From positions 280,479 to 344,478 of the forward strand of contig JAQUPL010000001.1 in NCBI GenBank assembly GCA_028716565.1: a stretch of 64,000 nucleotides of DNA, read 5' to 3'. This document shows positions 3,680 through 56,638 of the stretch, one piece after another (the first letter of the stretch is position 1; every line of letters starts with the position of its first letter). Source of the DNA: Candidatus Omnitrophota bacterium (GTDB lineage: Bacteria > Omnitrophota > Gorgyraeia > Pluralincolimonadales > Pluralincolimonadaceae). The position numbers were made by a program, and so were the translations under genes. The notes beneath the pieces are model-generated. The model was not told the DNA's origin, ran no database searches, and saw only the letters and a program-made list of their open reading frames with translations.

Positions 3680-4903
3680 CTAGAACCTCACTTTGATCGA
3701 TTCCATGTGCTTATTCAACCCCTCGAGCTTCGATATCTTCTCGATGGACTTCTTAGCTTTTTCCAACGCTTTTTTCGAATACGATATGATGTGCGATGAC
3801 TTGACAAAGTCCTCCACGCCGAGGCCGGAGAAGAACCTCGCGGTCCCGCTAGTCGGCAGGACATGGCTGGGCCCTGCAACATAGTCTCCTATGGCAGTGG
3901 GTGAATATTGGCCCAGGAATATGGCGCCTGCGTTATGTATCTTCTTAAGCCACTTCTGCGGGTTCTTGACCATTATCTGTAAGTGTTCCGGCGCAAGGCG
4001 GTTGACTATATCGCACGCCTCATCGAGGTTCTTCGCCAGGATTATATAACCGTTCGCGACCTCTTTCTTGAGCGTCTTCGCGAGCGGCTTGGATGTCGTC
4101 ACCAGTATCGGCAGTCCTTTGAAGTGCTCGCTCTGCGCCTCGAGGTCCTTTATCGCGAAAAGCGGGTTCGTCGACCTGTTCGCGAGGATGACCACCTCGG
4201 ACGGGCCGGCTATCATGTCTATATCGACATAACCGAAGACCTGACGCTTCGCTTCGGTGACGTAATCGTTTCCCGGGCCGACTATCTTGTCGACTTTCGG
4301 GATCGTCTTCGTGCCGAAGGCGAGCGCGGCTATCGCTTGGGCGCCGCCAACCTTATAGATCTCGTCGACCTTAAGCAGGTTCGCGACCGCCAGTATGTGC
4401 GGGTCGATGCTTTGATACTGGTTCGGGGGCGTGCAGAGGACGATGGATTTCACGCCGGCCACCTGCGCCGGCAGGACTGTCATGTATACCGTAGATATAA
4501 GCGGGGCTGTTCCGGCCGGGACGTATATACCGACCCTTTCGATAGGCGCGTATTTCTCGCCAAGCACCACGCCGTCTCCGTCTACGATCCTCCACGACTT
4601 CTTGCCTTTAAACTGTTTCTTATAAAATTTAGTGACGTTATCGATGATATTCTTGAGTTCGGATATGAATTCGGAGTCGATATCCTGGAATGCGCCGCTC
4701 GCTTCGCTCTCGGTGACCTTTAGCTGCCTGGCAGATAGTTTTACCTTGTCGAACTTGCGCGTGTACTTTATGACCGCGTCGTCGCCGTTCGCCTTGACGT
4801 CCTCTATTATCCTGTTGACGCACTCGGTGACGCGTTTCTTGCGGTTGTTATACCTGTTGCAGAGTTTCTCGAATTCCTTGCTGTAAAGTTTTATTACTTT
4901 CAT
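3680..4903 (-). CDS. hisD: Histidinol dehydrogenase
   Basis: 407 aa; HisD family; its ATG overlaps the alaS TGA as ATGA. Confidence 0.9.
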   Translation of the reverse strand: MKVIKLYSKEFEKLCNRYNNRKKRVTECVNRIIEDVKANGDDAVIKYTRKFDKVKLSARQLKVTESEASGAFQDIDSEFISELKNIIDNVTKFYKKQFKGKKSWRIVDGDGVVLGEKYAPIERVGIYVPAGTAPLISTVYMTVLPAQVAGVKSIVLCTPPNQYQSIDPHILAVANLLKVDEIYKVGGAQAIAALAFGTKTIPKVDKIVGPGNDYVTEAKRQVFGYVDIDMIAGPSEVVILANRSTNPLFAIKDLEAQSEHFKGLPILVTTSKPLAKTLKKEVANGYIILAKNLDEACDIVNRLAPEHLQIMVKNPQKWLKKIHNAGAIFLGQYSPTAIGDYVAGPSHVLPTSGTARFFSGLGVEDFVKSSHIISYSKKALEKAKKSIEKISKLEGLNKHMESIKVRF

Positions 4904-7563
4904 ATTTTAAGTTCCTTTACCGCCGCGATGCCGGCCTTCAGTGCCTCATCAAGCTTTGAGATATCCTTGCCTCCGGCCTGGGCAAGGTCTGGCCTTCCCC
5001 CGCCGCCGCCTAAGATTATCTTTGATATATATTTAATGACCGCGCGCGAATCGAGGCCTGACTTGGCCAGGTCCCGGGACATTCCTACGACTATAAAAGC
5101 CTTTTCATCATACGCGCCGAGCAATATGGATACTGCTTTCTCTTTCAGGACAGTCTTTATGGCGTCGGTGAGGCTCACGAGAGTATCGGGAGCGCAGCCG
5201 TCCATTCTCCTGGCGATAAGGGTGATACTATTATCCAATAATTCCTTCTTCGAAACAAGGTCTTTCGCCTTCTCCGAAATGTTGGCCGCCTCGTAATTCT
5301 TGAGCTTCTTTTCGAGGTCTTTTACCCGGTCCGCCAGTTTTTCTATCTGCGCGGGCAGGTTTTCCGGCTTTACCTTAAGCATCTCGGCCACGGCCTTCAG
5401 GTCGCTTTCGGATTCCTTTATTTTATTGTAAGCGGCTTCTCCCGCGATCGCCTCTATCCTGCGTATCCCTGCCGCGACAGACGACTCGCCGGTTATCTTG
5501 AATAGCCCTATCTCGCCGGTGGCATTCAGGTGCGTCCCTCCGCATAACTCCCTGGAGATATCCTCGACGCTCACTACGCGCACGTTCCTGTCGTATTTTT
5601 CCCCGAATAAGGCGGTCGCTCCGGACTTCTTTGCTTCCTCAAGGTCCATCTCTTTTACCTTGAGCGGAGCGTTGCGCCTGATATAATCATTGACCAGACT
5701 CTCGGCCGCCTCAAGTTCTTCCCCTGTTAGGCCCTTGAAATGCGTGAAATCGAACCTCAACCTCTCCGGCGCGACGAGAGAACCCGACTGGTTGACATGC
5801 GCCCCAAGCACTTTCCTTAACGCCGCCTGCAGCAAATGCGTGGCCGTATGGTGCCTGGCAATGGCCATCCGGCGGTGGATGTCGACCTTCGCATTTACCT
5901 TGTCGCCCGTCTTTGCACGCCCTTTTTCGAGCCTGCAGATATGCACCGGTATCTTTTCTATCAGTTTTGTATCTAAAACATCGGCCTTAAAATCATTGTT
6001 TTCGAGTACCCCTGTGTCTCCGACCTGGCCGCCGGTCTCACCGTAAAAAGGCGTAACATCGAGTATGACAGCGAACTCCGAAGGACCGGTCACTTCATTG
6101 GCCGGTTTATTATCTATTATTATGGCTTTTATGGCCGCGCTGGATTCTAATTTATCATATCCTATGAATTCAGACCTTACGCCGGAGCCCAAGACCGCGG
6201 CTGTCAGCGTCTCCGCGAATATATCTCCGGAGAGTTTTGTCGCGCCGCGGGATTTCTTGCGCTGCTCTTCCATTAACTTCTCATAACCTTCTAAGTCCAG
6301 TTTAAGCTGCCAATCTGCAGCATATTCTTTCATTAACTCGATTGATAATCCCTTTGTATCATGAAAATAAAAAATCATATCGCCAGGAATAGTATCTTTA
6401 CAGTTTTTCTTTAGGATCGTTGCCTGTATCTTTAAATGTTCCCATAATTCATTACTTATTACATAAAACTTTTCTTCTTCTGATTTTATAATTAAACTGA
6501 TATTTTCCCTACGCGATTCTATTTCAGAATAACCGCCTTTCATCACTCTTACAACAGGATCAACTAATTTATACAAAAAGGGCTTGTTAATATCAAAAAA
6601 TTTCCCATGCACTAGAGACCGTCTTATAAGGTGCTTAACAACATAACCTCTTCCTGTATTAGATGGTAAAACGCCATCAGCAATACAGAATACTGTCGCC
6701 CTAATGTGATCGGCAATTGCATTTATGTGTTTTTTACCATCTTCATCCAATGCATATAATTTCCGATCATCGTCTTCTATCAATTCTAATATTGCTTTTA
6801 TTATTGGCATGAAAATATCTGTTTCAAAATTCGTCTCGACGCCTTGTATGACAGAAGCTAGGCGCTCAAGCCCCATGCCTGTGTCTATATTTTTACTGGG
6901 CAGCGGCTCGAGCTTGTTCACCCCTACGCGGTTGAACTGCGTGAAGACGAGGTTCCATACCTCCACGTATCTCTTGCACTTGCCGCAGCCCGGCCCGCAT
7001 TTGGGATCCCCGCAGCCGTACTTCTCGCCCCGGTCGACATATATCTCGGAACATGGGCCGCACGGCCCGTTCGGCCCGTCCTCAGGCGCGTTCGCCGGCC
7101 AGAAATTATCATGCGCGCCGAATCTTGTGATTTTTTCCTTAGGGACTTTTATCCTCTCCGACCATATCTTATAGGCCTCGTCGTCATCCTTATAGACCGA
7201 GACCCAAAGGTCCTTCTCTTTCATCCCGAGCTCTTTTGTAAGGAATTCCCAGGCCCAGGCGATCGCCTCTTCCTTGAAGTAATCGCCGAAAGAGAAATTG
7301 CCGAGCATCTCGAAGAAGGAATGGTGCGACGGGGTCTTGCCGACATTATCGAGGTCGCCGGTCCTCATGCACTTCTGGCAGCTCGCCGCCCGTTTCATAT
7401 CCTTGCGCTTGCCGAGGAAATAATCCTTGAGCTGGTTCATCCCGGCGCCGGTAAATAGCAGCGACGGGTCGTCCTTCGGGACTAACGAGTCTGACGGGAT
7501 GACAGGATGGCCTTTCGAGGCGAAAAATGAGAGGAATTTACTCCTCAGTTGGTCCGTAGTCAT
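4900..7563 (-). CDS. alaS: Alanine--tRNA ligase
   Basis: 887 aa; class II aaRS motifs, IADHIRA...PSNTGRGYV editing/tRNA-binding region, and C-terminal DHHA1-like GGGGG motif. Contains an AT-rich in-frame segment (see findings). Confidence 0.95.
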   Translation of the reverse strand: MTTDQLRSKFLSFFASKGHPVIPSDSLVPKDDPSLLFTGAGMNQLKDYFLGKRKDMKRAASCQKCMRTGDLDNVGKTPSHHSFFEMLGNFSFGDYFKEEAIAWAWEFLTKELGMKEKDLWVSVYKDDDEAYKIWSERIKVPKEKITRFGAHDNFWPANAPEDGPNGPCGPCSEIYVDRGEKYGCGDPKCGPGCGKCKRYVEVWNLVFTQFNRVGVNKLEPLPSKNIDTGMGLERLASVIQGVETNFETDIFMPIIKAILELIEDDDRKLYALDEDGKKHINAIADHIRATVFCIADGVLPSNTGRGYVVKHLIRRSLVHGKFFDINKPFLYKLVDPVVRVMKGGYSEIESRRENISLIIKSEEEKFYVISNELWEHLKIQATILKKNCKDTIPGDMIFYFHDTKGLSIELMKEYAADWQLKLDLEGYEKLMEEQRKKSRGATKLSGDIFAETLTAAVLGSGVRSEFIGYDKLESSAAIKAIIIDNKPANEVTGPSEFAVILDVTPFYGETGGQVGDTGVLENNDFKADVLDTKLIEKIPVHICRLEKGRAKTGDKVNAKVDIHRRMAIARHHTATHLLQAALRKVLGAHVNQSGSLVAPERLRFDFTHFKGLTGEELEAAESLVNDYIRRNAPLKVKEMDLEEAKKSGATALFGEKYDRNVRVVSVEDISRELCGGTHLNATGEIGLFKITGESSVAAGIRRIEAIAGEAAYNKIKESESDLKAVAEMLKVKPENLPAQIEKLADRVKDLEKKLKNYEAANISEKAKDLVSKKELLDNSITLIARRMDGCAPDTLVSLTDAIKTVLKEKAVSILLGAYDEKAFIVVGMSRDLAKSGLDSRAVIKYISKIILGGGGGRPDLAQAGGKDISKLDEALKAGIAAVKELKI

Positions 7564-8113
7564 AATTTTCTTTGATTATCTTCCATATCGTGTTATAGGA
7601 GAACCCGCGCCTGCCCAGGAAATCGAGGAGCTTCTTCTTCGCCTTTTCTTTTTCGATCCCTTTCATGTGCGCCATCTTCCCGCGCACCAAAGGCATCGCT
7701 ATCTCATATTCGTTGAACGAGCCGTTTAGTTCGCCGAATGCCGCGCATATGGTCTCGTCATCCACGCCCTTGGCTTTAAGCTCTCTGGTGATGAGGTTCC
7801 TGCCGGCCGGCTTGATATGCATCCTGTCGCCGATCCAAAGCCTGCAGAAGACCCTGTCGTCCAGAGACTTTTTTTCTATCAACTCGTCTATGACCCGGGC
7901 TATCATAAAGCCGCGATGGCCCTTCTGCTTGAGCCGCTGGGCCATCTCCTTGACGCTGCGGGGACGGAACCTTAATAACCTTAAGGCATCCGCCTTCGCC
8001 TTCTGCAATGCCTCTTCGTCCGCCTCGACTTTATTTTTGTCCGTTTTCTTTATGTTCCTCTTTCGCTTCTTCTTTGACCACGGCGTATCCGCGCGAGGTA
8101 AGGACAAGCGCAT
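7538..8113 (-). CDS. recX: Recombination regulator RecX
   Basis: 191 aa; three-helix RecX repeats (ALRLLRFRPRSVKEM...); classic recA-recX-alaS neighbourhood; overlaps the alaS start and the htrA end. Confidence 0.8.
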   Translation of the reverse strand: MRLSLPRADTPWSKKKRKRNIKKTDKNKVEADEEALQKAKADALRLLRFRPRSVKEMAQRLKQKGHRGFMIARVIDELIEKKSLDDRVFCRLWIGDRMHIKPAGRNLITRELKAKGVDDETICAAFGELNGSFNEYEIAMPLVRGKMAHMKGIEKEKAKKKLLDFLGRRGFSYNTIWKIIKENYDYGPTEE

Positions 8114-9488
8114 CGCCCTTTACCGATTTTACCGCGTCATCGTAGTCTTTAATGTTCTTTATAGGTTTTTTATTTATTTCCAGGATAACGTCGCCGCGCC
8201 TAAGGCCGGCTTCGTCCGACGGGCTGCCCGGCTCTACATTCGTCACTACGACGCCCTTCTCGGAAACCTTATATTTCTGTGAGCTCGCGGGCGTCAACTC
8301 CTGGGCTTCCAGTCCGCGCCAGTTACCCAATTCTGCTTCGGCATATTCTTTAAGCTCTTCCGGCCTCTGCGCGATCTCAATATCAAGCGCGACATCTCTC
8401 TTGTCCCTGAGGACGACGACCTTTACCTTCTTTCCTATCGGGGCCCTTCCTACGAGCTTCAATAACTCGCGGACATTCTCGACCGGTTTGCCGTCGAACG
8501 TCTTAATGATATCCCCGTTCTTCATCTTGCCTTTCTCTGCCGGGCTGCCGGGAAGTATCCTGGCAATCAGGACGCCCTTTGTTTCAGTAAGGCCGAATTG
8601 TTTCGCGAGGTCCTCATCGAGGTCCTGCACGTTCACGCCGAGCCAGCCGTAAAGGACTTTCCTGCCCGAGATGAGGTCGCTTAACACGCGTTTCGCAGTA
8701 TTTATCGGGATGGCGAACCCTATGCCCTGGTAACCTCCTGTCGTGGATATTATCGCCACATTGATCCCTATGACCTTCCCTTCGATATCTACCAACGGGC
8801 CGCCGCTGTTTCCCGGGTTTATCGCCGCGTCGGTCTGTATGAGGTCGGAATAATCCTTATCTCCGTGCGTTCTTGGAAGGGAACGGTTGAGCGCGCTTAT
8901 CACTCCTACCGTAAGCGTCGGCTTACCTGCTATGCCGAACGGATTGCCGACCGCTATCGCGAATTGGCCGATCCTCACGTTGTCTGAATCGTCCAACTCG
9001 AGGGCCTTGAGGTTCTTGGCGTTTATCTTCAATACCGCGAGGTCGGCCCTCTGGTCCTGGCCTTTTACCTTTGCGGGAAATTTCCTGCCGTCTGATAAAG
9101 TGACCTCGATCTTATCGGCGCCGGAGATGACATGCTGGTTAGTGAGGATATAACCGTCAGCGTCGATCACGAATCCGGAACCGAGCCCGCGCTGCTGGAA
9201 CTCGCGCTCCGGGATATCCCCGAAGAAGTCCTTGAAGAACTGGCGGAACATCTCGTCGTTGCCCATCGGGCCCTGTCCGCCGCCCATCTTTGCCATATGG
9301 ACAGTCGAGATGGAGACGACGGCCACGCCGGCCTTATCCGCCACTTCGGAGAAAGTATTCTCGAGCGATTTCGCGACGCTTAAGTCCTGGGGGTTTGCCG
9401 GGGCCTGCCCATTCAAGCCAAATGCCGAAACCGCAAATACTAATACAAACACAAACCGCTTAAACATTTGAATTCCCCCCTTCCTCAT
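8031..9488 (-). CDS. htrA: Periplasmic serine endoprotease of the HtrA/DegP/DegQ family (signal peptide, trypsin-like domain, two PDZ domains)
   Basis: 485 aa; catalytic His in TNQHV, Ser in GNSGGPL; N-terminal signal sequence; two PDZ-like segments. Confidence 0.9.
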   Translation of the reverse strand: MRKGGIQMFKRFVFVLVFAVSAFGLNGQAPANPQDLSVAKSLENTFSEVADKAGVAVVSISTVHMAKMGGGQGPMGNDEMFRQFFKDFFGDIPEREFQQRGLGSGFVIDADGYILTNQHVISGADKIEVTLSDGRKFPAKVKGQDQRADLAVLKINAKNLKALELDDSDNVRIGQFAIAVGNPFGIAGKPTLTVGVISALNRSLPRTHGDKDYSDLIQTDAAINPGNSGGPLVDIEGKVIGINVAIISTTGGYQGIGFAIPINTAKRVLSDLISGRKVLYGWLGVNVQDLDEDLAKQFGLTETKGVLIARILPGSPAEKGKMKNGDIIKTFDGKPVENVRELLKLVGRAPIGKKVKVVVLRDKRDVALDIEIAQRPEELKEYAEAELGNWRGLEAQELTPASSQKYKVSEKGVVVTNVEPGSPSDEAGLRRGDVILEINKKPIKNIKDYDDAVKSVKGDALVLTSRGYAVVKEEAKEEHKENGQK

Positions 9489-9491
9489 TGT

Positions 9492-10532
9492 TTATGCGAT
9501 AGTTTTTTCTTTTATCTTTTTTTCCAGTTCGTGAAGGACTTTCGGGTTTTCCTTAAGGAATACCTTGGCGTTTTCCCTGCCCTGACCGAGCTTCTCGCCG
9601 TTGTAAATAATCCAGGAGCCTGATTTCTCGACGACGCCGAGGTTCGCGGCGAGGTCAATAATATCGCCGGTCCTTGAGATCCCTTCGTTATAGATTATGT
9701 CAAACTCGGCCTGGCGGAACGGCGGGGCGACCTTGTTCTTGACGACCTTGACCCTGACGTGGCTGCCGACAGACTGGTCGTTGATCTTTATGTTTTCGAT
9801 GCGCCTAATATCGAGCCTGACCGACGCGTAAAATTTGAGCGCGCGCCCGCCTGGCGTCGTCTCGGGATTGCCGAACATCACGCCTATCTTCTCGCGGATC
9901 TGGTTGATGAATATGACCGAGGTCTTGGACTTGCTTATCGAAGATGTCAGTTTGCGCAGCGCCTGAGACATCAGCCTCGCTTGGAGCCCTACGTGCGAAT
10001 CGCCCATCTCGCCTTCTATTTCGGCGCGGGGAACTAACGCCGCTACAGAATCGATAACGACCACGTCCACGGCACTGGACTTTACCAGCGTTTCACAGAT
10101 CTCAAGCGCCTGCTCTCCGGAATCCGGCTGGGAAATGAGGAGGTCGTCGAGGTTTACGCCGAGTTTCTTGGCATATGTGGAATCGAATGCGTGTTCTGCG
10201 TCAATGAAAGCGGCGGTCCCGCCTTTCTTCTGCGCTTCGGCGATCACGCTCAATGAAAGCGTAGTCTTTCCGGATGATTCAGGGCCGTATATCTCGACAA
10301 CTCGGCCCCTGGGTATGCCGCCTACGCCTATCGCCAGGTCAAGGGAAAGCGCGCCTGTCGGGATAGACTCTACCGCCGCGTGCGTCTCCTGGCCCAGCTT
10401 CATTATCGAACCTTTGCCGAACTGCTTCTCGATGTGCGCCAGCGCCAATTCGAGCGCCTTTGTGCGCTCGCCCTGCTCCTTCTGCGCCTCTTTTTCTTCC
10501 CTTTTTACTTCCTTTTCGTCCTTCTTTACCAT
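9492..10532 (-). CDS. recA: Recombinase RecA
   Basis: 346 aa; Walker [10 protein letters not shown] and canonical RecA core. Carries an unusual roughly 22-aa Lys/Glu-rich N-terminal extension. Confidence 0.95.
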
Positions 10533-53546: not shown

Positions 53547-54361
53547 TAACTTACCTCCCTGCCTATCACAGCCTGGACGATTTCGCGGTCTATGGCGGTC
53601 CTCTCGTCCATTATGACGGTCTCCACGCAATCGTGGCAGAGCAAGGCTATCTTCCTCGGATATCCCTGCGTATGTTCATATATATATTTTATCGCGTCGT
53701 CCGTAAAGAGCGGGGCCTGGGCCGAATAACCCGCCTGTTTCAGCCTGAACTCTATCATCTGTTTTGTCTCAGCCTCGTCCAGGGGATTTATCAGGTATTT
53801 AAGGGCGATCCTGTCCATGAAATTCTTTATCTTCCTTATCCTGGGCAGCAGCTCGACCTGGCCCAGTATGACAAGCTGCAGGAGCTTGTATTCATTGGTC
53901 TCGTAGTTCAATAATATCCTAAGGAGTTCGAGTTGGTTGGCGTCAAGCTTTTGGCCTTCGTCTATGAGGAGGATTATCGTCTTGTTCTCGTCGACGCCTT
54001 TTTGGAAGAGGTATTTTTCTATGGCATCCTTGAATTCAAGAGTCGACCTGAATGCCGGTTTGATCCCGAACATCTTCGCGAGGTTTGCGAGGAATTGGAA
54101 TTCCGTCTTATAACTGGGGTCGAGGATCATGTGGAATATGAAATTATCGTCCCCGTGGAATGATTGCAACAATGTCCGCGAGAGCGTCGTCTTTCCCGTC
54201 CCTACGTCGCCCAGGACCACGCTCAGGCCGCGCCTCAACCTTATCGTGATCTCCAGCCTGTTGAGGGCCGATTCATGCGATTGGGAACGGAAGAAAAAGG
54301 CGGGGTCCGGACTTGTCGAAAACGGTTCTTTCTCAAGGGCAAGCGCTTTATAATAGCTCAA
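53546..54361 (-). CDS. exeA: AAA+ ATPase ExeA/GspA (MshM-like)
   Basis: 271 aa; Walker A GDVGTGKTT, Walker B LLIDEGQ; ExeA-family length and layout. Confidence 0.7.
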   Translation of the reverse strand: MSYYKALALEKEPFSTSPDPAFFFRSQSHESALNRLEITIRLRRGLSVVLGDVGTGKTTLSRTLLQSFHGDDNFIFHMILDPSYKTEFQFLANLAKMFGIKPAFRSTLEFKDAIEKYLFQKGVDENKTIILLIDEGQKLDANQLELLRILLNYETNEYKLLQLVILGQVELLPRIRKIKNFMDRIALKYLINPLDEAETKQMIEFRLKQAGYSAQAPLFTDDAIKYIYEHTQGYPRKIALLCHDCVETVIMDERTAIDREIVQAVIGREVS

Positions 54362-54603
54362 CTTGAGGCCCTTCCGGGTTCCAGTAGTTCGAGGATCTTC
54401 TTTATCGGGTATTTATCCCGTCTTAAACTTATTATCCTGTTCAGCCTGTTTATAGTAGATTCATCAAAATATCTGAAATTCGTCTCAGGGCTCCTGCCTA
54501 CCTCAGAGATAAGCCTTATTTTGAGATAATATTTCACCGTTTCTATGGAAAGTCCGGTCAATCTTGCTAAATCTTTAACTAAATATAGGTTATGAGCGCT
54601 CAT
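54358..54603 (-). CDS. Small MerR-family HTH protein (DNA-binding domain only)
   Basis: 81 aa; LYLVKDLARLTGLSIETVKYYLKIRLI matches the MerR HTH and wing; no effector domain. Confidence 0.6.
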   Translation of the reverse strand: MSAHNLYLVKDLARLTGLSIETVKYYLKIRLISEVGRSPETNFRYFDESTINRLNRIISLRRDKYPIKKILELLEPGRASS

Positions 54604-54626
54604 CTTCTACTCCCTACTCAGGGAGC

Positions 54627-54655
54627 AGTATATAAAATCATACTTATCTTGTCAA
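54627..54655 (-). promoter_or_regulatory. Candidate internal promoter TTGACA-17-TATACT upstream of the merR-like gene, followed by palindrome CTCCCTGAGTAGGGAG that includes the SD
   Basis: -35 is the complement of 54650-54655; -10 is the complement of 54627-54632; the 6-bp-arm inverted repeat at 54610-54625 overlaps the AGGGAG Shine-Dalgarno. Confidence 0.4.
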
Positions 54656-54674
54656 GTATTTTTTGAAGAAAGGG

Positions 54675-55208
54675 TTAATGGATAGCTATTTTGGAAATTA
54701 CGATACCGCACCTGAGGATGTTAGAGCGGGCCTGTTTCGGATTCAGCGATAATCTATCGATAGCCAGCAGATGAGCGGAATTCTGCACTTTTCGCATAAA
54801 ATCTGATATCTGTATCATGTCCCCTTCCAGCTCGAGGCCGGCGTAAAACTTCCTGTAAAGGCTGAATTTTTTCGTGGGCAGGGGTTTTATCTCGTTTATG
54901 TGGACTCCGGTCGTATTCGCGAGGGATTCGATCTCGGTGAGGAATTTAGCCATCTCCTCTTCCGCCGAACCGGCCATCCTGAGGGCCGACGCGGCTTTTT
55001 CATAATCGCCGGTTATCGGCCCTGTCCTGCCGATGAGGCGCTCGCTCTTTTCCAGTTTGAGGGTGTCCGCGGCTATCTCATCGTTAAGCCGCTTCCATTT
55101 TGTCGAGACCGGTTTTAAGATGAACGCCTGGGCGGCCCATGCGACTATCACCGCCAACGTAAGATAAAAAAGCTTGCTCTCCCGGCCGCTGAGGTTTAAT
55201 AATGTCAT
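54675..55208 (-). CDS. PilO / GspM-like bitopic inner-membrane assembly protein
   Basis: 177 aa; short cytoplasmic N-terminus, TM helix, coiled coil, and a C-terminal ferredoxin-like region, as in PilO/GspM. Confidence 0.55.
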   Translation of the reverse strand: MTLLNLSGRESKLFYLTLAVIVAWAAQAFILKPVSTKWKRLNDEIAADTLKLEKSERLIGRTGPITGDYEKAASALRMAGSAEEEMAKFLTEIESLANTTGVHINEIKPLPTKKFSLYRKFYAGLELEGDMIQISDFMRKVQNSAHLLAIDRLSLNPKQARSNILRCGIVISKIAIH

Positions 55209-56638
55209 TTGGCCGCCTTTCCGGATAACGGGCAGGATATCTCGAAATCCACGAATTCGGCTTGCGGGGTCTTTCTCTTTGCGGCGTATTTCACTTCGAC
55301 GTTCTCAAAATACGGCGAGTCGTCGAGCAGCTTGACGAACCTGAACACCTCGGACAAAGCTGATGACGTCCCCTTTATGTCCACCCTCCCCTCATCGTAT
55401 TTATACAGCGCGAGGTTTATCGAAGGGGGCGCGATCCTGTAGAATTCGTTCAATATCAAAAGCGGCCGCGCCCTTTGTGATGATTCGGACCTGACGATAT
55501 CGGCTAACTCCTTCTTCCTGCCTATCTCCTGCGCCGACGGGGCCGTCTTCTTCAGCCTCAGTTCGAGCACTCTCAATAATTCTTCCTTTTGGTGCAGTTT
55601 GTTCACGACCACGAGAGATAGAAGTATAAGGACAGCCGCGGCCAGCGAAAGGGAGACCATAGCCTCGTTCCTCCTTATCTTCACCGACCTGGCAACCTTA
55701 AATCTCCCGGGCAACAGGTCTACCCTGTCCGGTCCGGCCGCATTGCCTATAAGGGAGGCGAACGAACCTGTTGAGGTGAAAGGCCTGGATCTTTCAGGTA
55801 CCCCGGAAGGGAACACCTTGAACGCGTCCCTGAATTCAACCTTTATCCCCATCGCGTTTTCAAGCGATTCCTTGTGCGCTTCCATCCCGGGCAAATAACC
55901 GGTAAAGACAGCCTTTACGGGTTTCAAGGTCAAGGATTCCTTTTCGAATGTCACCAGGGTCCTTGTTATTTCTTCCTTAAGCCTTTCGATGTAATCCGCG
56001 CCCCCGCCGGAGCCGAAAGTGAGTCCGCGTGTATATATTACCTTCTCTTTATCGGCGATCACGATGTCCGTGGCCGACTTATCGCATTCCACGACGATAA
56101 CAGGCGCCGCGCCCGCCCCGGCCATGAAATCCGGGTCCATCCTTAGCCAGTTGAGGATACCGATAGAGCTCAGCGTCACCTTCGAAGGGGAGAATCCGCA
56201 GGACCTCATCACCTCAAGCGGCCTCTCGACCATATCTTTGTGGCAGATGACAAGCATCACCTTCGAATAGCCCTCGGCCGTCGTCTCTATCGGGCTGACG
56301 CCGTATGTTATCTCCTCTTTTGGATAGGGTATCTGTTTTATCGCCTGGAACCCGGCCATCTCTTCTATCTCCGCCGGGTCATGGGACGGAAGGCTCAGCG
56401 TTTTGGTCGTCACGGATTGCCTGGGTATTACGAGGACTGTCTCTTTGGGTTTTATGTTAAAGTTTTTGAGGATCTTGCTTAACGCCTCTGAAGCCGCTTT
56501 GACGTCATTCGACGGCACCGCTTCGCTGACGCAGGCCTCTATCGCCGCGGCCGGGCCGCTCACCGATATCTGGATGACTTTTATCTCAGATTCGCGTATC
56601 TCGATCGCCGTCTTAGTCTTGTCGGTAAATAATCCCAT
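55205..56638 (-). CDS. PilM-PilN fusion protein (GspL-like architecture)
   Basis: 477 aa. An N-terminal actin-like PilM domain is followed by a PilN segment beginning VDLLPGRFKVARSVKIRR, then a TM helix and a periplasmic domain. Confidence 0.65.
   Translation of the reverse strand: MGLFTDKTKTAIEIRESEIKVIQISVSGPAAAIEACVSEAVPSNDVKAASEALSKILKNFNIKPKETVLVIPRQSVTTKTLSLPSHDPAEIEEMAGFQAIKQIPYPKEEITYGVSPIETTAEGYSKVMLVICHKDMVERPLEVMRSCGFSPSKVTLSSIGILNWLRMDPDFMAGAGAAPVIVVECDKSATDIVIADKEKVIYTRGLTFGSGGGADYIERLKEEITRTLVTFEKESLTLKPVKAVFTGYLPGMEAHKESLENAMGIKVEFRDAFKVFPSGVPERSRPFTSTGSFASLIGNAAGPDRVDLLPGRFKVARSVKIRRNEAMVSLSLAAAVLILLSLVVVNKLHQKEELLRVLELRLKKTAPSAQEIGRKKELADIVRSESSQRARPLLILNEFYRIAPPSINLALYKYDEGRVDIKGTSSALSEVFRFVKLLDDSPYFENVEVKYAAKRKTPQAEFVDFEISCPLSGKAAK

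Follow-up and report, generated by a model that had tools for sequence, protein, structure and literature searches.

Classic examples of mosaic genes are the penicillin-binding-protein genes of Neisseria and Streptococcus, which are selected by beta-lactams. Breakpoints inside open reading frames (ORFs) were detected in 19.6% of 1,462 prokaryotic orthologue sets (Chan, Beiko, Darling & Ragan 2009, PMC2817436), and homeoalleles have been described for the aminoacyl-tRNA synthetases (aaRS) TyrRS, ThrRS and SerRS as whole genes that swap in conserved synteny via recombination in flanking sequence (Andam & Gogarten 2011, PMC3191353). Here we analyse alaS, the gene for alanine--tRNA ligase (AlaRS), in a 64-kb stretch of DNA from the Candidatus Omnitrophota contig JAQUPL010000001.1; this whole stretch is referred to as the window. 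An AT-rich block of the gene, which covers the tRNA-recognition region of the enzyme, is very probably a genuine intragenic recombination tract: the module would have been replaced from a divergent, lower-GC member of the same clade, and the replacement has recurred in the clade, with two AT-rich allele families. Since fragmentary transfer and the replacement of homeoalleles via conserved flanks are both established (PMC2817436, PMC3191353), the recombination reading is supported by known systems. The event is of a known kind, and what is unusual about it is that it is domain-precise and recurrent. No published domain mosaic of alaS, and no such phenomenon in Omnitrophota, was found in the open-access literature.

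As in fragmentary lateral gene transfer, an internal segment of a single-copy orthologue differs in phylogeny and composition, the breakpoints lie within the ORF, and the frame and presumably the function are kept. Unlike there, the unit in alaS, a gene for an essential informational enzyme, coincides with a single structural and functional region, and this unit has been replaced repeatedly. Like the aaRS homeoalleles, the alternative blocks of alaS are divergent forms of the same predicted function within one higher taxon, are patchily distributed against the backbone phylogeny, and would be replaced in unchanged synteny by recombination in conserved flanking sequence. Homeoalleles comprise the whole gene, with the flanks in neighbouring genes, whereas here a domain of 185 codons is concerned and the flanks are motifs inside alaS itself. 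Indeed, the pattern is not that of whole-gene exchange, as only codons ~245-430 are exchanged and the N- and C-terminal parts follow the backbone. Furthermore, the alternative alaS alleles are compositionally distinct (AT-rich), unlike the described aaRS homeoalleles. The penicillin-binding-protein mosaics have beta-lactams as their selective agent; in the alaS case any such agent would be hypothetical.

Composition and ancestry of the block

The alaS gene (4900..7563, minus strand) is an intact, uninterrupted ORF of 887 amino acids. Its AT-rich block, termed the type Q allele, occupies 6274..6831 on the minus strand (alaS codons 245-430) and has a GC content of 0.32 and a GC3 (GC content at third codon positions) of 0.25, whereas the remainder of alaS has values of 0.54 and 0.66. 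A first-pass annotation of the window had pointed out such a block between strongly GC-rich flanks. The block is real, includes the lowest GC content over 550 nt in the 64 kb, and could be refined in extent to the coordinates given here. The drop is as sharp as the annotation had described it, but the flanks are of moderate composition (54% GC). In a 150-nt sliding profile GC is 0.28-0.37 across ~6250-6850 and 0.50-0.62 on either side, and GC3 in 20-codon intervals falls from 0.7-0.9 outside to 0.15-0.35 in the block. Among all 550-nt intervals of the 64 kb (mean GC 0.525, sd 0.030) the minimum lies at 6281-6830 (GC 0.322, z ~ -6.8). The next-lowest non-overlapping interval is 54349-54898 with a GC of 0.405, and the scan revealed no other sub-genic dip of similar depth within the 64 kb.

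A two-breakpoint likelihood fit to GC3 placed the block at codons 245-427 (6831-6283; 2*dLL = 101), with an AT content at third positions of 0.75 inside and 0.34 outside, while AT-type codons reach codon 430 (6274) on inspection at the codon level. The reading frame is intact across the block, and the IADHIRA and PSNTGRGYV motifs are both present in it, in agreement with the first-pass annotation. The encoded amino acids are AT-skewed as well, more so than in any other block (FYMINK 0.366 and GARP 0.175, compared to ~0.30 and ~0.26 in the majority type introduced below). This skew goes beyond synonymous codon change and points to a long residence under AT pressure.

Some further properties of the region were recorded. 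Sigma-70-like hexamer pairs occur seven times on both strands of 6333-6827, compared to 2.5 +/- 1.4 in shuffled sequences. This enrichment is probably a by-product of the AT-rich composition and is no evidence of function; imported AT-rich DNA could, on the other hand, create spurious intragenic promoters. No Rfam matches were obtained in 4500-8500 at E <= 1, and no meaningful or significant repeats were found around the block. On the plus strand a single ORF (6725-7174) overlaps the block, an antisense shadow ORF without support. A milder GC3 dip (0.35-0.5) is located 3' of the block at ~5960-6180 (alaS codons ~461-535). Two of the related loci described below, L084 and L003, also diverge more near this position (amino acid identity 0.5-0.6 at codons 461-490).

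For an analysis of ancestry the window sequence (Q) was compared with a clade of ~36 Omnitrophota AlaRS proteins. The closest other proteins, P0004-6, share 95% of the amino acids with Q in residues 1-235 and 87-91% in residues 430-887, and only 64-70% in the block (residues 240-424). At the protein level the closest relatives overall hence carry a different block. The identity of the Q block to all other clade members is flat (59-70%), while the blocks of the majority type (P0004-7, P0013, P0019) are mutually 78-91% identical. Neighbour-joining (NJ) trees on Kimura distances with 300 bootstraps were calculated for each segment. The group of Q, P0002, P0004, P0005 and P0006 received a bootstrap support of 99% in the N flank and 100% in the C flank, and 0% in the block. 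The block nests within the clade (bootstrap 99-100% with Q), yet outside every sampled subgroup, and shares only 38-49% identity with other bacteria. This strong incongruence between segment and flank trees supports what the first-pass annotation had proposed, a mosaic that arose by recombination with a lower-GC donor. With a supported incongruence of segment and flanks and definable breakpoints inside the ORF, alaS can be classed, as far as sequences allow, as a mosaic gene.

Recurrence, breakpoints and age of the block types

The window comes from a metagenome-assembled genome (MAG), and conserved genes are classic sites of chimeric joins. The low GC could have been produced by a metagenome assembler that jumped into a co-occurring low-GC alaS and back, an artefact that the first-pass annotation had considered. 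Two further MAGs, L001 (GCA_028714115) and L002 (GCA_028711645), encode AlaRS proteins which differ from that of the window by 3-4 residues. Over 13,563 aligned bases L001 shows 34 and L002 30 substitutions relative to the window (~0.25%), which are scattered and not accompanied by gaps. Apart from these single-nucleotide polymorphisms (SNPs), the AT-rich block and both junctions are base-for-base identical in the three assemblies. Four SNPs fall inside the block (6274, 6432, 6433 and 6448), and those at 6432-6433 and 6448 lead to the replacements K378E and E372D. In the comparison of the window with L001, 4 of the 34 SNPs lie in the 558-bp block, where 1.4 are expected (P ~0.05). For an artefact, the same false join would have had to arise three times, in assemblies of strains that can be told apart by SNPs inside and outside the block, and we therefore reject an assembly chimera as extremely improbable. 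Furthermore, analogous mosaics are present in unrelated JGI, Logan and other NCBI assemblies, and no matching low-GC alaS into which an assembler could jump was found in the databases.

A metagenome scan with block-specific peptides identified one relevant contig, L085 (JGI Ga0105164_10079342, 1.7 kb), a fragment which carries recX and the first 375 codons of alaS. The block of L085 is 82-83% identical to the window block and only 61-64% to that of P0012, while its N flank shows 97% amino acid identity to P0012. Compared to L084, the locus that encodes P0009, the nucleotide identity of L085 is 92-96% over most of the N flank and 43-73% in the block. Accordingly, the bootstrap support for a group of Q, P0002 and L085 is 99% for the block but 0% for the N flank, whereas that for a pair of L085 and P0012 is 98% for the N flank and 0% for the block.

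The flank of L085 nests within a group of sequences with another block, type 8, so that in L085 one AT-rich type has apparently replaced another. The type 8 block is common to P0008, P0009, P0011 and P0012, whose flanks are those of ordinary clade members. These blocks are mutually 90-93% identical, 58-69% identical to others and 61% to the window block. A further carrier is P0037 (L122, GCA_028712765): its flanks are 94-96% and 90-91% identical to P0016, P0017 and P0019, while its block shares 81% identity with P0012 and 61-64% with P0019. A 391-aa protein search with the block at its centre revealed the fragment P0361, whose C flank shares 88% identity with P0020, while its block shares 84% with P0009 and 66% with P0020. 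Thus three block types are present, the majority type, type Q (window and L085) and type 8 (P0008/9/11/12, P0037 and P0361). Type Q occurs in two backbones and type 8 in three, with backbones defined by the flank tree and not by a ribosomal tree.

Where DNA is available, the composition tracks the block type exactly. The GC3 of block and flank is 0.25 and 0.66 in the window and 0.33 and 0.66 in L085 (both type Q), and 0.36 and 0.61 in L084 and 0.36 and 0.72 in L122 (both type 8), so that all four carriers have a block GC3 of 0.25-0.36. Both majority-type controls range from 0.59 to 0.69, with values of 0.59 and 0.67 in L003 (P0007) and 0.69 and 0.66 in L123 (P0019). The dip is not a lineage-wide feature, a possibility by which the first-pass annotation would have been refuted, since these two majority-type relatives, of which L003 is the closest one with DNA available, do not show it and since P0004-6 carry another block.

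These distributions bear on accelerated evolution in situ, by which local AT-biased mutation or relaxed constraint would have changed the block with no transfer at all. Even among themselves, majority-type sequences are less conserved in the block than anywhere else in the aminoacylation half, and the Q block still nests within the same clade; both findings would fit such a history. However, the type Q block is shared with L085, whose flank belongs to another lineage (99% versus 0% bootstrap), and this excludes a simple acceleration in situ. Type 8 is likewise found in three backbones, the identity of the block to the clade is flat and not graded, both boundaries are sharp, and selection within the types is purifying. 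We regard this explanation as very improbable.

The breakpoints were located in a codon alignment of six homologues. The gene-5' crossover zone (6808..6834, minus strand, codons 244-252) lies in the conserved stretch TNF(E/D)TDIFxPII, which closely follows class-II motif 3 (DTGMGLERL). Host-type codons end with GGC GTC GAG ACG (241-244), AT-type codons begin with AAT TTT GAA ACA, and M252 is the earliest residue specific to the block. The switch is at ~codons 250-252 in L085 and 254-256 in L122, inside or at the distal edge of the same motif, and the divergent stretch of L084 likewise begins at ~codon 250. The gene-3' crossover zone (6265..6288, minus strand, codons 426-433) is in the conserved GYEKLM(E/D)EQRxKSRGATKL, where AT-type GGT TAT GAG AAG TTA is followed by host-type GAG CAG CGC AAG AAA TCC CGC GGC GCG. 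L122 returns to its backbone partner L123 at codon 430/431, the same codon as in the window.

Change-points of mismatches, at amino acids 252-429 for Q versus P0004-6, 250-420 for P0009 and 255-425 for P0012, give the same picture, and those of Q coincide with the change-points of GC3 (codons 245-427). L085 parts from P0012 at ~residue 254 in its own numbering. In the codon alignment the recombinants track their backbone partner through ...DTGMGLERLASV.QGV.TNF(E/D)TDIF.P and rejoin it at ...GYEKLM(E/D)EQR.KSRGATKL. No other stretches around the segment are as conserved as the two junction motifs, and the breakpoints agree within ~10 codons among the carriers with DNA across them. Outside the block, Q, L085 and L122 show no tract of donor-type flank at the codon level.

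Nei-Gojobori estimates of non-synonymous (dN) and synonymous (dS) divergence were used to compare selection and age. Between Q and L085, dN is 0.106 and dS ~1.0 in the block, and 0.102 and 1.41 in the N flank. The two type 8 blocks of L084 and L122 differ by a dN of 0.10 with saturated dS. Given a dN/dS of ~0.1 within types, the alleles are under ordinary purifying selection. Between the backbone partners L084 and L085, dN is 0.064 and dS 0.53 in the N flank, and dN rises to 0.336 with saturated dS in the block. For the partners L122 and L123 the flanks show a dN of 0.03-0.05 and a dS of 0.73-0.75, while the block shows a dN of 0.28 and saturated dS. As judged from these estimates, the allele families are old, and the replacements postdate splits that are themselves of moderate age.

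Source of the block and circulation of the alleles

According to the reading that we prefer, ~555 bp of the resident alaS (codons ~245-430) would have been replaced in the ancestor of a species-level Omnitrophota lineage by the homologous segment of a divergent, lower-GC alaS. The crossovers would have occurred in the two highly conserved stretches that bound the tRNA-recognition domain, by homologous or short-homology recombination after DNA uptake. The product would be a full-length, in-frame chimeric AlaRS in which catalytic core, editing domain and C-Ala are of vertical descent and the tRNA-recognition module is foreign and functionally equivalent. Within the clade this module has been replaced several times by one of two AT-rich families, so that the segment behaves like a sub-genic homeoallele. 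The majority type is presumably ancestral, as it is prevalent and roughly congruent with the flanks.

The donor would be an unsampled member of the same family-level clade with a genome of roughly 30-40% GC, as a GC3 of 0.25 is typical of genomes in this range. A lower-GC donor within the clade is reasonable because the clade is compositionally heterogeneous and includes lower-GC members, such as L124 (P0034), whose locus has a GC content of 0.437 and whose alaS shows a uniform GC3 of 0.44. Gene conversion from a paralogue was rejected, as blastn and tblastn, run within the window only, revealed no second copy of the block. Hypermutation of the type caused by diversity-generating retroelements was dismissed without a dedicated test; the tract comprises 555 bp and differs at all base types.

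The search for a donor covered proteins, genomes, metagenomes and phages. Among 5.8 billion protein clusters no protein outside P0001-3 has a block with more than 70% identity, and the L085 fragment (82-83%) is the only such sequence. A full-length protein search, in which a block of more than 80% identity joined to clade-level flanks would rank near the top, contained none. Block-only and 391-aa protein searches, which address targets of similar length only, did not reveal a type Q block in fragments. A HMMER search of 50%-identity representatives with the block gave a best identity of 48% and is too coarse to inform on the donor. A scan of genome contigs with the clade alignment, based on universally conserved AlaRS peptides, had relatives of 40-48% among the matches listed. 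No viral or phage source was found in a scan of viral contigs, and tblastn against 50,697 phage records gave nothing above 43%.

Several points weigh against a simple import from a lower-GC relative. A donor in its native context was not found in the protein, metagenome and phage searches, and L085 is itself a mosaic and not a uniformly AT-rich gene. The same-type alleles are old (block dS ~1.0 for Q and L085, saturated for type 8) and still AT-rich in hosts with a GC3 of ~0.66, which requires either several independent recent AT-rich imports or a force that retards amelioration. The trees are distance-based NJ trees and not maximum-likelihood trees with formal topology tests, and the closest relatives P0004-6 as well as P0361 were compared at the protein level. 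The accessions of the three MAGs belong to one series (JAQT...) and may stem from one study, so that their independence rests on the SNPs. Finally, the persistence of the low GC3, the exchange of AT-rich for AT-rich in L085 and the tight junctions fit a circulation of alleles slightly better than import.

In such a circulation, long-lived alternative tRNA-recognition modules would move among GC-richer Omnitrophota, or on a small AT-rich mobile cassette, and would be maintained by selection, e.g. by a toxin or inhibitor directed at AlaRS or tRNA-Ala. Recombination would still be the mechanism, and the composition would be intrinsic to the alleles. The boundaries are the same in the two or three backbones that carry each of the two families, and GC3 stays at 0.25-0.36 despite a dS of at least 1 within types. 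The apparent swap between AT-rich types in L085 and the crossovers always tight to the block, without a donor flank tract, point in the same direction, as do the missing uniformly AT-rich donor gene in the databases and the marginally raised SNP density in the block. Nevertheless, no known mechanism would keep GC3 as low as 0.25 in a genome of 52% GC, and a dN/dS of ~0.1 within types is a sign of ordinary purifying and not of diversifying selection. Neither a viral or phage copy nor a second copy in the window was found, and since lower-GC clade members exist the simpler donor model suffices. We consider this alternative unlikely.

A broader and tentative proposal, to which we would give some limited credence, is that the tRNA-recognition domain of AlaRS is an exchangeable cassette, of which two or more ancient AT-rich families pass from one co-occurring lineage to another, always at the same motif-defined boundaries. 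Escape from a toxin or inhibitor, co-variation with tRNA-Ala or an unseen AT-rich carrier may keep the cassette AT-rich and polymorphic. No tRNA-Ala gene is present in the window with which the block could co-vary. If true, this would represent a domain-level, sub-genic homeoallele system in an essential enzyme of translation.

The encoded domain, its neighbourhood and implications

The window AlaRS is identical to P0001, a protein from a MAG (625-kb contig) that is named 'alanine--tRNA ligase [Candidatus Omnitrophica bacterium]'. It contains the domains PF01411 (tRNA-synt_2c), PF07973 (tRNA_SAD, editing) and PF02272 (DHHA1, C-Ala) and matches the AlaRS structure of A. aeolicus (1RIQ) with E = 3e-123. 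With this domain architecture in a single intact ORF the predicted product is a bacterial alanine--tRNA ligase (AlaRS, class IIc). The chimeric enzyme is predicted to aminoacylate its tRNA from the intact frame, the conserved residues, the dN/dS of ~0.1 and the fact that this is the sole alaS in the 64-kb window.

AlaRS consists of catalytic, tRNA-recognition, editing and C-Ala domains, and in the A. fulgidus enzyme N359 and D450 of the tRNA-recognition domain form hydrogen bonds to the G3:U70 identity pair of tRNA-Ala (PMC8887476). The block starts a few residues past class-II motif 3 and aligns to residues ~236-417 of A. aeolicus AlaRS (1RIQ) and ~252-430 of the 441-residue fragment of the E. 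coli enzyme (3HXU). The exact limits of the tRNA-recognition domain in the bacterial enzyme are assumed. The codon for Asn302 (6658..6660, minus strand), within PSNTGRGYV, aligns to the Asn at chain index 302 of 3HXU. The codon for Asp402 (6358..6360, minus strand), within FHDTKG, aligns to the YDTYG Asp of the E. coli and A. aeolicus enzymes. Both residues are inside the block and invariant in 21 clade sequences of all three block types. By alignment, N302 and D402 are the counterparts of the Asn and Asp that read G3:U70 and are retained in the putatively imported block. In 3HXU the Asn of PSN and the Asp of YDT have the chain indices 302 and 399. We assume that these are N303 and D400 in the numbering of E. 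coli AlaRS, and an index that is one lower would fit a numbering offset of one residue.

Like canonical AlaRS (1RIQ, 3HXU), the window protein shows the known domain order, class-II motif 3, PSNxGRGYV, DTxG, and the Asn and Asp for G3:U70. Unlike canonical AlaRS, it would be chimeric, with a tRNA-recognition domain from another lineage than the rest, and it has a Cys-rich insert that the solved A. aeolicus structure lacks. This clade-specific insert is located in the catalytic domain (~6976-7029, alaS codons ~179-196) and corresponds to a 10-residue gap in the sequence of the A. aeolicus structure. C184, C189 and C196 are invariant in the clade alignment and C193 is nearly so; the insert looks like an extra metal-binding knuckle. 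It falls within the one part of the N flank where L084 and L085 are not highly similar, a divergent patch at amino acids ~151-207 (window equivalent ~6943-7113) with a nucleotide identity of 0.64-0.82. The window has YGCGDPKCGPGCGKCKRY here and L085 has YGRCFVGKPCPDPDHCAPGCPCGRF. The patch may be a second, smaller mosaic segment of alaS.

The upstream neighbour of alaS is recX (7538..8113), with an overlap of 26 nt, and the downstream neighbour is hisD (3680..4903), with an overlap of 4 nt. Gene order was compared for the window (3680-10532), L001-L003, L084 and L122-L124. The order recX-alaS-hisD is kept in all retrieved loci whose contig reaches downstream (the L122 contig ends inside alaS), and wherever a locus extends far enough the conserved order also includes recA, a gene for an HtrA-like protease and hisB-hisH-hisA-hisF. 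Outside the window, the database proteins P0041 and P0349 combine an AlaRS-like sequence with PF02091 (glycyl-tRNA synthetase alpha subunit) and may be fusions or mis-joined gene calls. The second GC minimum of the window, 54349-54898, looks ordinary and covers an HTH-like ORF of 81 amino acids (54358..54603, minus strand) together with intergenic DNA. By translation alone, a PilM-like gene (55205..56638), a gene for a small membrane protein and a gene for an ExeA-like ATPase are located around it; type IV pilus genes at this place could bear on DNA uptake.

The aaRS genes belong to the core informational genes, and they often serve as markers that are taken to be vertically inherited. Here two AT-rich allele families are spread over five or more backbones, and related uncultivated bacteria have exchanged the G3:U70-decoding region on no fewer than four or five occasions, while the rest of the enzyme remained undisturbed. 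The tRNA-recognition module of AlaRS thus appears to be naturally interchangeable across ~35% sequence divergence. In this clade alaS should not be trusted as a marker, whether used singly or within a concatenated alignment, and composition-based filters for MAG chimeras could wrongly discard such real biology. This clade provides a natural system in which to ask whether sub-genic transfer in essential genes is driven by selection on tRNA recognition or only by the mechanics of recombination, with its conserved anchor motifs.

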